Source: a virus
Lineage: Duplodnaviria; Heunggongvirae; Uroviricota; Caudoviricetes
Direction: 5' to 3' (one strand)
Length of the DNA stretch: 22,140 bases
IMG/VR virus record: IMGVR_UViG_2579779149_000003
Shown here piece by piece: positions 9,678 through 14,382 of this stretch. Every line of letters starts with the position of its first letter. Position 1 is the first letter of the stretch. The notes under the pieces are model-generated. The model did no database searches, was not told the DNA's origin, and worked only from the letters and a program-made list of their open reading frames with translations. Both the position numbers and the translations under genes were made by a program.

Positions 9678-9971
9678 ATGAAAAAAATGCTACTCGCTAC
9701 TGCGCTGGCCCTGCTTATTACAGGATGTGCTCAACAGACGTTTACTGTTCAAAACAAACCGGCAGCAGTAGCACCAAAGGAAACCATCACCCATCATTTC
9801 TTCGTTTCGGGAATTGGACAGGAGAAAACTGTTGATGCAGCCAAAATTTGTGGCGGCGCAGAAAATGTTGTTAAAACAGAAACCCAGCAAACATTCGTAA
9901 ATGGATTTCTCGGTTTTATTACTTTAGGCATTTATACTCCACTGGAAGCGCGTGTGTATTGCTCACAATAA
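9678..9971 (+). CDS. bor: Bor lipoprotein (serum-resistance lysogenic-conversion protein, 97 aa)
   Basis: MKKMLLATALALLITGCAQQTFTVQNKPAAVAPKETITHHFFVSGIGQ... matches lambda Bor; opposite strand to the lysis genes as in lambda. Confidence 0.95.
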   Translation: MKKMLLATALALLITGCAQQTFTVQNKPAAVAPKETITHHFFVSGIGQEKTVDAAKICGGAENVVKTETQQTFVNGFLGFITLGIYTPLEARVYCSQ

Positions 9972-11412: not shown

Positions 11413-11628
11413 TTACTCTCCCCGTGCAGCCTTACGCTTGTCTTCTCTGATTTTGAAGTACAGATTTGTCAGATAAGTCAGGAAGCCCAGAACCAGACTC
11501 CCAAGTACACCAATCGCAGCCCACTGTGACGGACTGACCTGATCAAGCCACTGTAAAAACCAGTAGCCAGCACTGCCTGCGGAGGTGCCGTAGGCAATGC
11601 CCGTTGAAATTTTGTCCATGGATTTCAT
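11413..11628 (-). CDS. S: Class II pinholin (phage 21 S21 / EssQ-like, 71 aa, dual-start motif MKSM)
   Basis: [71 protein letters not shown] matches the S21 pinholin: two TM segments and a Met-Lys-Ser-Met dual start. Confidence 0.9.
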
Positions 11629-11788
11629 AGCCTCACCTCCGCAAATAACGGATGGCGTAGTTTTACACTGAGAAATGAAAGGGATTTGAAAAGAAAAAAC
11701 CGCAAAAGCGGGCGAAACGATATATACAGAAAGGAAAGCACTCTATCCAACAAACCACCCACAGTTGATCGGAATAAAAGCAGAGTGC

Positions 11789-11861
11789 TTATGAATGATC
11801 GCCTGCCCGAAGGTTAGTATTTCTGCACAGCAATTTTGCAAAAAAAGGCGATCATTCATAA
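11789..11861. repeat. 16-bp perfect inverted repeat with 41-bp spacer (candidate RNA structure or protein-binding site)
   Basis: TTATGAATGATCGCCT at 11789..11804 and its reverse complement AGGCGATCATTCATAA at 11846..11861. Confidence 0.6.
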
Positions 11862-11920
11862 CTTAAACGTCTTTCAGTCACTCCGGGATTTCCCATCATC
11901 GCAGACTGAAAGACTCTGAC

Positions 11921-11995
<75 letters not shown>

Positions 11996-11998
11996 ATA

Positions 11999-12074
<76 letters not shown>

Positions 12075-12076
12075 AC

Positions 12077-12153
12077 TGGACCGCCACCGGGGACTCGAAC
12101 CTCGCACACTCAACTTAAAGGGTTGACGCTCTTTCCTGATGAGCTAGTGGCGG
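12077..12153 (-). tRNA. tRNA-like gene with atypical anticodon loop CCUUUAA (anticodon UUU by position, C at position 33); identity uncertain
   Basis: Acceptor CCGCCAC/GUGGCGG, D-arm GCUC...GAGC, anticodon stem UCAAC/GUUGA, T-arm CGAGG-UUCGAGU-CCCCG (one mismatch), encoded CCA. Packed 2 nt and 1 nt from neighbouring tRNAs. Confidence 0.45.
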
Positions 12154-12154
12154 T

Positions 12155-12230
12155 TGGTGGCCCTTGCTGGATTTGAACCAGCGACCTGGCGATTATGAGT
12201 CGCTCGCTCTCACCACTGAGCTAAAGGGCC
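12155..12230 (-). tRNA. ileZ: tRNA with anticodon CAU (IleX/IleZ-like tRNA-Ile2, or Met)
   Basis: Reverse complement GGCCCUUUAGCUCAGUGGUGAGAGCGAGCGACUCAUAAUCGCCAGGUCGCUGGUUCAAAUCCAGCAAGGGCCACCA closely resembles E. coli tRNA-Ile2 (ileX) and the ileZ gene of lambdoid prophages; T-arm GCUGG/CCAGC is perfect. Confidence 0.8.
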
Positions 12231-12350
12231 GGGCGCAGGATAATAACGTTACGAAATCAATGTTGCAAGCATTCAAAAATCACCTGGTTAAAAATCACCC
12301 TTATCTCCTCCACCAGCGCATTCACCATGTCTATCCGAGATAAGTGACAC

Positions 12351-12372
12351 AAAAAAACCGCTTGATGCGGGT
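12351..12372 (-). terminator. Weak terminator-like hairpin with U7 on the minus strand (possible tR'-like element of the late promoter region)
   Basis: Minus-strand RNA CCGC-AUCAA-GCGG followed by UUUUUUU (plus strand a-run 12351..12357). The stem is only 4-5 bp. Confidence 0.3.
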
Positions 12373-12419
12373 TTAAGTTGTGTGGCGAAGCGACCACTCT
12401 TAACAGATTAAGATAGTTT

Positions 12420-12449
12420 TTGCGTACGCGTTAGTGATTTTTTCATAAT
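12420..12449 (+). promoter_or_regulatory. Candidate sigma-70 promoter for the three-gene membrane cassette
   Basis: TTGCGT (12420..12425), 18-bp spacer, CATAAT (12444..12449), about 45 nt upstream of the proposed start at 12495. Confidence 0.3.
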
Positions 12450-12494
12450 TATCTGTATCCTGTGGCTATTTCTCTTGCGCAAAGGATGCTTTTG

Positions 12495-13373
12495 ATGACG
12501 CAGCAACTCGAAAACATGCCAATAACAGAAATCGAAATTGCCTACGGTGGAGAGGCATACGCAGATAATCAGATCGACGCGAAAACATTAGGCGAAGCCT
12601 TAACCTCTCTTAGTGCCCTGATTGAACACGCCGAAAAAATAATTAATGGCGAAACAGCAGAGCCGAAAGTCAACATCAAGGCAACAAAAGAAGGTTCATT
12701 TACTTTGCTTGTTGCTGTGATGGGGAGCATAAAAACTATTAACGCCCTTGGCCTCGTTGCAGGTGGTGGAGTTGCCGCAGGTGGCGTACTCGGGATAATC
12801 GAATGGCTCAAAGGGCGTAAAATCAGCTCCATTGTCGTCGATGAACAAAAAGATACAGCAGAAATCGAAGTGGATGGTGAGAAGGTTAAATGCAGTAACG
12901 ACATTCAAAAATTAATAACCAGTCCAATCATCCGAAAAGAACTGGATAAATTAATCTATAAACCCCTGCAGACTGAAAAACCATCCACGTTCTCAGTTTC
13001 ACAGCAGAAGCATAAGGTAGTCAGGGTGACGCAAGCTGAAGCAGTAAGTTTTAAAACTGCAAAATCCACCTTTGTCGAGAAAACGCACGTAACGACACGC
13101 CAAGCTAATGTACATTTTGCTAATGTTCGATTCAAGCAAGGCAAAAGCTGGGATATCATCCTGCCAAATGGCGAAGAAGTTAGCGCATCTATGAAAGATG
13201 AGGCTTTTCTTGAACGGGTTGAACACAACCAAGCAGCATTCTGTAAGGGTGATCTTTTTGTTGTAGAACTGACAGAAACAACAAAAGAAACAAATGGCGC
13301 GCTGTCTAAACCACGCTATAGTATTACTAAGGTTATACGCCACAGAGCGGCGGCAGATAGGAAACTACTTTAA
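12495..13373 (+). CDS. Hypothetical membrane-associated protein (about 292 aa), first gene of an AT-rich three-gene cassette
   Basis: ORF open from 12462 (GTG); the preferred start ATG 12495 (MTQQLENMPITEIEIAYGGE...) has AAGGA 9 nt upstream. Central glycine-rich hydrophobic segment SFTLLVAVMGSIKTINALGLVAGGGVAAGGVLGIIEWL flanked by soluble N- and C-terminal regions. No family recognised. Confidence 0.65.
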   Translation: MTQQLENMPITEIEIAYGGEAYADNQIDAKTLGEALTSLSALIEHAEKIINGETAEPKVNIKATKEGSFTLLVAVMGSIKTINALGLVAGGGVAAGGVLGIIEWLKGRKISSIVVDEQKDTAEIEVDGEKVKCSNDIQKLITSPIIRKELDKLIYKPLQTEKPSTFSVSQQKHKVVRVTQAEAVSFKTAKSTFVEKTHVTTRQANVHFANVRFKQGKSWDIILPNGEEVSASMKDEAFLERVEHNQAAFCKGDLFVVELTETTKETNGALSKPRYSITKVIRHRAAADRKLL

Positions 13374-13376
13374 ATC

Positions 13377-13622
13377 ATGTCAATCCTAAGCATTATGCTT
13401 TACATCACTGTATTCATGGCTGTCGCAGCGACGGTCAGATATGCTGTGCTTAGGTTCTTGGTTTGGGTAAAGCCGAATGCGTATATTGAACTAACCTACA
13501 CCGATCCTGAAGGCAGAACCGCTAAAAGGAAAGTCAGCGTTAGAAACGAAAATGACGCAGAAGAGTTGGCGCTACTGCTACGCGAACTCAAAACTCGCAA
13601 CGAAGCAAGTGCAGGAAGGTGA
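13377..13622 (+). CDS. Hypothetical small membrane protein (81 aa, one N-terminal TM helix)
   Basis: MSILSIMLYITVFMAVAATVRYAVLRFLVWV... then a charged tail; starts 3 nt after the stop of the upstream gene. Confidence 0.6.
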   Translation: MSILSIMLYITVFMAVAATVRYAVLRFLVWVKPNAYIELTYTDPEGRTAKRKVSVRNENDAEELALLLRELKTRNEASAGR

Positions 13623-14009
13623 ATGGCGAACACTAAATCCTACCTGGCAATGCAGGCATGGTTTACCACCCTTATCACTGCGGGATTGAATTTCCTTTTT
13701 GACTGGCTTCCTCAATTAGCCTTCTTCAAATCATTGGCGCCTGGAGCTGCTGTCGGCTTATCTCATGTGGTAATTCTTCTTATCGCTTACATAGGTTTGC
13801 CTACGCTTAATGATGTAAGAATGAAAAGGGAAATAAAAACGGCCAGAAAATTCATCACGAACTGCCTGGCCAACCCTAACCTAACACCAGACCAAATTGC
13901 GCACTACAACCAATGTCTTATCGATCTAGACAATAAGCTATTAAAAAACATAAATATTCGTATTGATGCTTTATCTGACGCCGAATCGAAAGCTCAAGCA
14001 AACGAGTAG
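13623..14009 (+). CDS. Hypothetical membrane protein (128 aa, two predicted TM helices)
   Basis: MANTKSYLAMQAWFTTLITAGLNFLFDWLPQLAFFKSLAPGAAVGLSHVVILLIAYIGL... then a soluble tail; the ATG directly abuts the upstream stop (tgaATG). Confidence 0.6.
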   Translation: MANTKSYLAMQAWFTTLITAGLNFLFDWLPQLAFFKSLAPGAAVGLSHVVILLIAYIGLPTLNDVRMKREIKTARKFITNCLANPNLTPDQIAHYNQCLIDLDNKLLKNINIRIDALSDAESKAQANE

Positions 14010-14022
14010 TAACAGTCATAAC

Positions 14023-14382
14023 TTATGATAGAATCAAGCATATACATCCATCAATAAAGCCTAATGCAGTTTGCAGCTCCTTTCTTATAGTTCCATCTGA
14101 GCACCTGCGTTTCTTCGCGATTGAGCGTAGAGAAACACCAATAACAAAGTGAGCTATGAGCAGCTCATATTCCTCTGGTTTATACTTTCGCAACCGAGCC
14201 ACACAACCGTCTATCATGATGCCTTCATCATCATCACACTGGAGACGTGACTTTTTGCCATGTGGCAAAAGCCCCTTGAAGCCCGCTGCTATCGGTTGCC
14301 AATCGACACCGCTATTTTCTGCTGCAGCCCATGCCCCCCAGCGATCTAAAACCTCATACATATCACGCCCCATTACCATCAC
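14023..14382 (-). CDS. Q: Late-gene antiterminator Q (QuuD/Phage_antitermQ-type, about 116-119 aa)
   Basis: MMVMGRDMYEVLDRWGAWAAAENSGVDWQPIAAGFKGLLPHGKKSRLQCDDD...CSDGTIRKELQTALGFIDG aligns by eye with DLP12 QuuD (ERWGAWAA, IAAGFKGL, KSRPQC, CSDG). The start may be the internal ATG at 14373. Confidence 0.85.
   Translation of the reverse strand: MMVMGRDMYEVLDRWGAWAAAENSGVDWQPIAAGFKGLLPHGKKSRLQCDDDEGIMIDGCVARLRKYKPEEYELLIAHFVIGVSLRSIAKKRRCSDGTIRKELQTALGFIDGCICLILS

Follow-up and report, generated by a model that had tools for sequence, protein, structure and literature searches.

The window considered here is a stretch of 22,140 nucleotides (IMG/VR virus record IMGVR_UViG_2579779149_000003), which is part of an Escherichia coli lambdoid prophage with the phage genes on the minus strand. 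The analysis concerns the position of the late promoter PR' and of the Q-utilisation region (qut) relative to the gene of the antiterminator Q and to the cassette of antisense genes that follows it. Together, PR' and the Q-utilisation region very probably occupy positions 12443..12351 of the minus strand, directly before the tRNA genes and at a distance of 1.6 kb from Q. The inferred PR' start lies 1625 bp from the Q stop codon; PR' is not immediately downstream of Q.

In the phage direction, the gene order is a DUF968 gene, rusA, Q, three plus-strand open reading frames (ORFs), a 230-bp spacer, four tRNA genes, a 290-nt structured spacer, the S21-type holin gene, a DUF1327 gene, and the lysozyme and spanin genes. 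The segment 11400..14400 is 100% identical to E. coli strains LSN03-016011/A and EcPNK006. The preliminary description of this DNA had placed Q, the antisense cassette, the tRNAs and the holin correctly to every coordinate, and had considered two locations for PR'/qut: just below Q, with 1.6 kb of read-through across the cassette, or within 12240..12460, where a hairpin with U7 would be a tR'-like terminator and the cassette would lie between Q and its target. The homology to phage Sp5 and the module profile described below support the second location, and the hairpin with U7 exists, at 12370..12351. The first location gains no support. The Q gene and the parts of the PR' module are as follows:

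14023..14373, minus strand: Q antiterminator gene, short form (115-116 amino acids) of the Q21 family (PF06530; RefSeq 'antiterminator Q family protein')
12443..12435, minus strand: A-tract of the module
12422..12434, minus strand: CTAACGCGTACGC with the palindrome GCGTACGC (-31..-24), candidate Q-binding element, from clade pairing
12405..12410, minus strand: PR' -10 hexamer TAATCT, aligned with TATCAT of Sp5; TAxxxT in 69 of 69 loci
12394..12401, minus strand: AAGAGTGG, with the inferred PR' start at about 12398 (range 12401..12397), from the count-back from the Sp5 tR'
12382..12397, minus strand: possible 5' stem-loop of the PR' transcript (+2..+17), five pairs, from folding
12351..12370, minus strand: tR'-like hairpin CCGC-AUCAA-GCGG followed by U7 (+29..+48), from folding and homology
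12420..12449, plus strand: candidate leftward promoter of the cassette, inferred from a -35 TTGCGT (12420..12425), an 18-nt spacer and a -10 CATAAT (12444..12449)

Position of the PR' Module

The module profile, built from eight related loci of which one is the window segment itself, gives one significant match in the window, at 12448..12346 (E 1.6e-29), and none near Q. Independent support comes from a scan of one genome per GTDB species that yielded 80 loci with a related Q: in 69 of these further species-level loci, all from Enterobacterales, this profile recognises a module after Q and on the same strand.

The experimental anchor of the module is phage Sp5, in which the primary 5' end of PR' and the 3' end of tR' were mapped 258 nt apart by dRNA-seq and Term-seq and described as 'closely associated with Q' (PMC7547250). 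A start 258 nt before the U-tract of tR' falls inside ATAAGAG, 5-9 nt downstream of a TATCAT hexamer. The module of the window aligns with the region after the Q933 gene in Sp5/PA4 as ACG..CG.AAAAA-N6-TATCxT-Gx-TAAGAGTGGTTAC..GCCAC, followed by a hairpin and U7, so that the likeness extends both upstream (ACG..CG.AAAAA) and downstream (GGTYAC.T.GCCAC, hairpin, U7) of the start. At the promoter itself, the window reads TAATCT-GT-TAAGAGTGG and Sp5 reads TATCAT-GA-TAAGAGTGG. Based on this homology to a mapped PR', the -10 element of the window is assigned to 12410..12405 and the start to about 12398, the exact start site in this prophage being a prediction. The -10 position keeps the form TAxxxT in all 69 loci through 18 different hexamers, which argues that the element works. 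The start motif AAGAGTGG is conserved far beyond the needs of a promoter.

The alternative location would have PR' and qut overlap or follow the 3' end of Q, with the Q-modified polymerase reading antisense through the 1.6-kb cassette. A promoter-like sequence, TTGATG-N18-TATCAT at 14054..14025, overlaps the Q stop, and the generic terminator scan detected no terminator on either strand between the converging stop codons of Q and of the last cassette gene. However, these stop codons are only 13 bp apart, TTGATG comes from the codons of the conserved protein motif GFIDG, and TATCAT is absent in relatives with different Q C-termini; with no module downstream of it, this sequence was rejected as PR'. 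In the locus AMSHJX01, a hairpin and then a T run are read right after Q, and in 55 of the 59 loci with short Qs the cassette separates Q from the conserved promoter motif that has the experimental anchor. A promoter at the end of Q, where the module profile has no match, is considered extremely improbable.

The Q ORF is open from 14382, with the RefSeq start at 14373 and a TAA stop at 14025..14023. Its product matches PF06530 with 153 bits (cut-off 26; E 3.8e-45) over residues 6-116. The description of Q as QuuD-like holds, with 51% identity to QuuD of K-12, and of its assignment to the phage 21/82 type the first half stands: PF06530 was equated with the Q21 family by Yin et al. (PMC9388147), and the Q82 type, which had been assumed first, was dropped on this ground. 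The Q933 protein of Shiga toxin (Stx) phages belongs to PF06530 too and is 45% identical to the window Q. A profile of the window Q and its relatives matches the solved Q21 chains 6JNX/6P18 (E 3e-8), with residues 8-86 aligned to residues 20-99 of Q21. The alignment leaves out the long loop and the recognition helix at the C-terminus, and the window Q has 115 amino acids, against 162 in Q21. Judging from these lengths and from the extent of the profile match, the short Qs appear to be devoid of the long loop that separates the two DNA-binding helices in Q21.

The Palindrome and the Q Clades

The module contains a palindrome centred at about -27.5, the sequence of which depends on the clade of Q. 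The type of the palindrome tracks the Q clade in all 69 loci, and the nearest Q neighbour always has the same type. The forms are distributed as follows:

GCGTACGC: 49 loci, with Qs at least 57% identical to the window Q
GCGGNCCG, written GCGG(T/A)CCG: 13 loci, second Q clade
TACGTACGTA: 3 loci, a clade including relatives of DLP12
TCGTTACGA: 2 loci
GTAATTAC: 2 loci
TACGATCGTA: Sp5/933W at the same position, with Q933, outside the GTDB set

The intervening cassette and the downstream half of the module are swapped between the clades, and the palindrome stays with the Q type. Such exchange of the surrounding parts, but not of the palindrome, points to a functional pairing and not to linkage alone. 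At the level of sequence, the pattern shows that the window Q and its distant promoter form a matched pair, and the palindrome at -32..-23 is a candidate Q-binding site. The perfect pairing of clade and palindrome thus offers a concrete and testable DNA site for a subgroup of Qs without a defined binding element.

The palindrome may also take part in transcription of the opposite strand. Its right half, read on the other strand, is TTGCGT, the -35 of the candidate leftward promoter of the cassette. TTGCGT is followed by TAxxxT at exactly 17 nt in 24 of the 56 cassette-bearing loci, with at most 5 at the neighbouring offsets, save one that overlaps a conserved CTAACG motif. The leftward promoter of the window, with its 18-nt spacer, falls below the threshold of the generic promoter scan. 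Its start would lie near 12456, which would make the PR' and cassette starts divergent and about 58 bp apart.

This overlap underlies a serious, though less probable, alternative, in which PR' is placed correctly and the palindrome is the -35 or an operator of the leftward promoter, or a linked passenger, with the true Q-binding element (QBE) located at -23..-12 as in phage 21. Besides the spacing of TTGCGT and TAxxxT, this explanation can draw on Q21 itself, which binds two direct TGAGCA repeats at -25..-12, an arrangement confirmed in a PR'21 region reconstructed from IMG/VR contigs. In contrast, the segment -23..-13 is poorly conserved within a Q clade, and the palindrome is kept where the cassette is missing, i.e., in E. 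coli W224N, in Sp5, and in the long-Q loci with an adjacent module. The palindrome remains with its Q type while the downstream module halves are shuffled between clades, and a binding geometry different from that of Q21 is plausible for Qs that seem to be devoid of its long inter-helix loop.

The Early Transcribed Region

The first nucleotides of the PR' transcript may form a stem-loop: in an alignment of 65 distinct sequences, 79% of its cells are paired, and the covariation, which includes G-C to A-U changes, is modest. No TAxxxT is conserved in the early transcribed region across these 65 sequences. The tR'-like hairpin that follows was missed by the generic terminator scan, since it has only four G-C pairs (CCGC/GCGG) and a folding free energy (dG) of -5.2 kcal/mol. 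A hairpin with a U-tract starting at +33..+90 is present in 53 of the 69 related loci, with a median dG of -9.5 kcal/mol, and modules of the O104:H4/ST131 type have an equally weak hairpin (-5.0 kcal/mol). The window and the locus L001 are without one G of the 3' arm of the terminator, in comparison to a locus of 99.8% identity (L002): CCGC/GCGG against CCCGC/GCGGG, or -5.2 against -8.7 kcal/mol.

Such a difference could indicate that the module is an ancestral PR' of which the window copy has decayed, making control by Q leaky or absent and leaving the prophage cryptic as regards late regulation. The missing G and the sequence TCGCTT in place of the TTACTT of close relatives agree with decay, and DLP12 of K-12 illustrates that such modules persist in defective prophages. 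On the other hand, the -10 element, the start motif and the Q-matched palindrome are intact in the window, the O104:H4/ST131-type hairpins are no stronger, and the arrangement is kept at 99.5-100% identity in 30 genomes, with the lysis, terminase and Q genes annotated as intact. Decay of the window copy is regarded as unlikely.

Several points weigh against the placement of PR' at 12443..12351 and the role given to its parts. The start site is carried over by homology from a phage with a Q only 45% identical to that of the window. There is no acceptable -35 element before the -10 of PR', the expected position reading TAACGC or AACGCG; the upstream A-tract might compensate for its absence. A convincing sigma-dependent pause element was not found at +6..+13 either, where the window has TCGCTT and its relatives have TTACTT, TACATT or TACTTT. 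The terminator, with its four G-C pairs, is weak, and its efficiency is doubtful because transcripts of Sp5 evidently pass the homologous first hairpin to reach tR' at +258; the structured spacer between the tRNAs and the holin may be among the real barriers to late expression. Finally, Q clade and palindrome may match because they were inherited together and not because one recognises the other, and Q21 binds direct repeats and no palindrome (PMC6606751).

Some near-identical genomes carry in RefSeq a coding sequence of 36 amino acids named 'antiterminator' (window 12288..12398, minus strand; 4889-4999 in L002), which overlaps the PR' leader and the terminator and is probably spurious. A remnant of a second Q gene at 12257..12397, suspected from this RefSeq name, was rejected: the region has no Pfam or NCBIfam match and corresponds to the PR' leader.

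The Cassette Between Q and PR'

The cassette is a discrete segment of 1573 bp, flanked by the 6-bp direct repeat TTATGA. Its boundaries and genes are:

14016..14021, minus strand: left TTATGA copy, with the junction at 14016|14015, from comparison with W224N
12443..12448, minus strand: right TTATGA copy, with the junction at 12443|12442, where homology to W224N resumes at AAAAATCACTAACGCG
12495..13373 (ORF open from 12462), plus strand: cassette gene A, candidate defence protein (PADLOC PDC-S42, NCBIfam LAPAL_fam, PHROG 3243 of unknown function)
13377..13622, plus strand: cassette gene B, 81 amino acids with a hydrophobic N-terminus (PHROG 27630, unknown function)
13623..14009, plus strand: cassette gene C, 128 amino acids with a hydrophobic N-terminal half (PHROG 26468, unknown function)

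The junctions follow from E. coli W224N (L003), which joins the same left and right sides directly. The Q of this strain is 99% identical to the window Q, its stop is followed by the module after 7 nt, and there is no cassette. The junction in W224N reads ...ATCATAAGTTATGA|AAAAATCACTAACGCGTACGC..., with the Q end ATCATAAGTTATGA joined straight to AAAAATCACTAACGCG, at the place where the window has the cassette. A search with 12231..12470 resolves this segment into two parts with different distributions among genomes: 12374..12231 is found in about 900 E. coli genomes, adjoining ileZ-type tRNAs, and 12452..12367 matches the DNA directly after the Q gene in W224N. Among the complete genomes of E. 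coli, 30 contain the window cassette and 15 lack a cassette as W224N does; in about 1000 E. coli genomes the match to W224N does not begin before the right junction, and these have the module with other upstream content. The cassette-less form is the rarer one and looks most simply like a secondary deletion between the TTATGA repeats.

The product of gene A matches PADLOC PDC-S42 over residues 22-299 (E 3.3e-53) and NCBIfam LAPAL_fam (E 1e-66). The PDC systems of PADLOC are candidate defence systems only, and no paper of the searched literature mentions PDC-S42. Gene B has no Pfam, NCBIfam or PADLOC match, and the terminator scan found no plus-strand terminator after gene C. In AMSHJX01, a homologous three-gene cassette lies next to a Q of a different clade; its gene A is 29% identical to that of the window and matches PDC-S42 as well (4e-27).

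A second antisense cargo gene is present at 9678..9971 of the window (plus strand), downstream of the lysis genes. It encodes an Iss/Bor-type lipoprotein and is annotated as iss in an identical genome.

Prevalence and Occupants of the Slot

The space between Q and PR' acts as a slot for exchangeable cargo in many species. Across the 69 loci, the inferred start lies at a median of 1557 bp from the Q stop, and this distance depends on the length of Q: for Qs of at most 125 amino acids the gap is at least 500 bp in 55 of 59 loci, and for longer Qs the module is adjacent in 9 of 10. The preliminary description allowed for a cassette between Q and PR'; its terms 'displaced' and 'inserted' overstated the oddity, as such a gap is usual for short Qs. 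A displaced Q is the ordinary state of this subgroup.

The gaps are filled almost wholly by antisense ORFs, which encode 97 proteins in 49 clusters and 31 architectures in the 55 loci, and the ORF nearest to Q mostly lies within about 35 bp of the Q stop or overlaps it. Occupants that match validated defence systems are KwaA and KwaB of Kiwa (two members each) and PD-Lambda-5_A (three members), to which the candidate PDC-M53 (three members) can be added. Other occupants contain domains typical of defence, namely KAP NTPase, AbiEii-like AAA, HipA-like kinase, RelA/SpoT and NYN. The commonest cassettes have no PADLOC match. The view of the slot as a defence hotspot is reasonable and only partly shown, because it rests on a minority of the occupants. 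No hotspot described between Q and PR' was found in the searched literature.

The most frequent cassette (eight loci) is a pair of proteins of about 400 and 370 amino acids, the tested representative of which (L023) has no PADLOC match. Among the gap proteins of L013-L092 as a whole, nine match the Pfam family NA37 of nucleoid-associated proteins. In the Serratia loci L060 (6459-7308), L058 and L062, two to seven tandem PR'-like modules with a period of about 105-110 bp lie directly after Q, with no cargo cassette.

The slot is shared by prophages of pathogens. The O104:H4 outbreak lineage, ST131, an enterotoxigenic E. coli (ETEC) strain, and the phages Stx1_499 and Stx2a_WGPS2 have different, unrelated antisense cassettes in the same place, and at least six different slot cassettes occur in E. 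coli alone. As a consequence, a PR' annotated 'just after Q' is misplaced in a large share of lambdoid prophages, which bears on the prediction of Stx or lysis gene expression from the Q to stx region. Since most of the occupants match nothing known, the slot is also a practical place to seek new anti-phage systems.

The tRNA Genes, the Spacer and the Holin

The following features lie downstream of the module:

12240..12268, minus strand: tRNA promoter with TTGCAA, a 17-nt spacer, TATTAT and a G+C-rich discriminator (promoter scan, 9 of 12 matches)
11921..12230, minus strand: four tRNA genes, CAT (Ile2 in RefSeq), Lys, Thr and Gly (ARAGORN, Rfam, RefSeq)
11413..11628, minus strand: holin, the first protein-coding gene of the late operon (PF04971, phage 21 holin S, E 1.4e-35)

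The first tRNA (12155..12230, minus strand) is called Met (CAT) by ARAGORN and tRNA-Ile by RefSeq; presumably this tRNA resembles ileZ and is modified with lysidine, like that of Stx phages. Rfam matches in this region of the window are confined to tRNAs. The sequence of the tRNA promoter is common to O157 prophages, and for Sp5, Sy et al. reported a mapped tRNA promoter in the interval from tR' to stx2 (PMC7547250). The spacer between tRNA-Gly and the holin (11629..11920, minus strand) folds with a minimum free energy of -96 kcal/mol (z -5.3) into two long hairpins, has no Rfam match, and may hold further terminators or a small RNA.

The presence of this promoter raises the question whether the tRNA and lysis genes are expressed mainly from 12268..12240 and not from PR' under the control of Q. 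The promoter is a good one with a G+C-rich discriminator, located 2-3 nt upstream of the first tRNA, and a tRNA promoter was seen at the equivalent place in Sp5. The strongly structured 290-nt spacer with its long hairpins nevertheless parts the tRNAs from the holin, constitutive expression of the holin would be lethal, and the Q gene and its matched module are both maintained. Expression of the tRNA and lysis genes chiefly from the tRNA promoter is hence judged very improbable.

Proposed Working of the Locus

The analysis shows the gene layout, the cassette junctions, the homology between the module and a mapped PR', how well the module is conserved and how common the slot is; on this ground, a working of the locus can be proposed. 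Q would be made from the early operon and would act at the distant PR' site, so that RNA polymerase passes the terminator, continues through the tRNA genes and the structured spacer, and reaches the holin and the other lysis genes. Transcription of the cassette probably begins at the leftward promoter, which stands back to back with PR' and has its -35 TTGCGT inside the palindrome region. Late transcription would then run away from the cassette, in a divergent arrangement without collision. The preliminary description had expected interference between cassette and late expression wherever PR' lies; this does not follow in the supported case, in which PR' fires away from the cassette.

The transcription of the cassette and of the Q operon, in turn, would converge. 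It is plausible that in the lysogen the cargo transcripts run antisense into Q, and that after induction the early transcription suppresses the cargo. Taken together, these elements may describe a dedicated slot, widespread in Enterobacterales, with its own leftward promoter and always antisense cassettes, many of them anti-phage. Convergence would make two states exclusive, one in the lysogen with the cargo on and Q damped by antisense transcription, and one with the cargo silenced as soon as early transcription passes through Q, and short Qs would read the clade palindrome with a geometry unlike that of Q21. This joint reading is tentative and falls short of being probable.

For the window, the analysis places the start of late transcription and removes the supposed conflict between the cassette and late expression. 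The cassette is identified as cargo expressed in the lysogen, its promoter being a predicted one. The layout is already present in K-12 and in many prophages of pathogens and is thus of modest novelty; what deserves further attention is how general the slot is and the palindrome that goes with each clade.

Comparison with Known Systems

Phage 21 shares with the window the PF06530 family and the order of the parts: a promoter, an element bound by protein before the start, and a terminator with its end near +48. In this phage, the QBE consists of two direct TGAGCA repeats at -25..-12, the -35 is the consensus TTGACA, and a TAAGCT pause element occupies +2..+7 (PMC6606751). The QBE, -35 and pause sequences are all absent from the module of the window, which contains neither TGAGCA nor other direct repeats with 8-bp spacing at -25..-12; its candidate element is instead a palindrome about 7 bp further upstream, and the window Q is matched against a Q21 of 162 amino acids. 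The comparison with the PR' region of phage 21, proposed in the preliminary description, thus confirms the same order of parts but no sequence similarity between the window module and the reconstructed PR'21.

The anti-phage hotspots of P2-like phages and P4-like satellites (Rousset 2022; Vassallo 2022) resemble the slot in their conserved phage flanks, the swapping of small systems and the presence of some validated defences. The slot differs in that most of its occupants have no PADLOC match, it belongs to another phage type, it lies between an antiterminator gene and its target promoter, and all of its cargo is antisense to the phage operons.

The PR'-tR' region of Sp5/933W, the source of StxS, has a homologous -10, start motif, early transcribed sequence and first hairpin with U7, as well as a tRNA promoter and an ileZ-type tRNA downstream, and its Q belongs to the same family, with 45% identity. 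Unlike in the window, Q933 has 144 amino acids, PR' overlaps the 3' end of its gene, and there is no cargo slot. Sp5/933W has TACGATCGTA as its palindrome and a TTTACG -35, and the mapped tR' is a second terminator at +258, which is absent from the window.

DLP12 of K-12, with quuD, the antisense nmpC, the module and essD-rrrD-rzpD, has a Q of the same PF06530 family, parted from the same module by an antisense cargo gene expressed in the lysogen. Its module (4198-4277 of L213; nhmmer E 2e-22) comes next after the antisense nmpC/IS5; essD follows about 120 bp further on, and quuD is 2.86 kb away. The regulatory region of the DLP12 lysis operon used experimentally adjoins essD and was reported to be under Q control (PMC7918800). 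The cargo of DLP12 differs from that of the window in being a porin gene interrupted by IS5; DLP12 also has a wider gap (2.86 kb), TTTACGTACGTAAA as its palindrome and no tRNA genes. In both prophages, the module is located just upstream of an S21-type holin.

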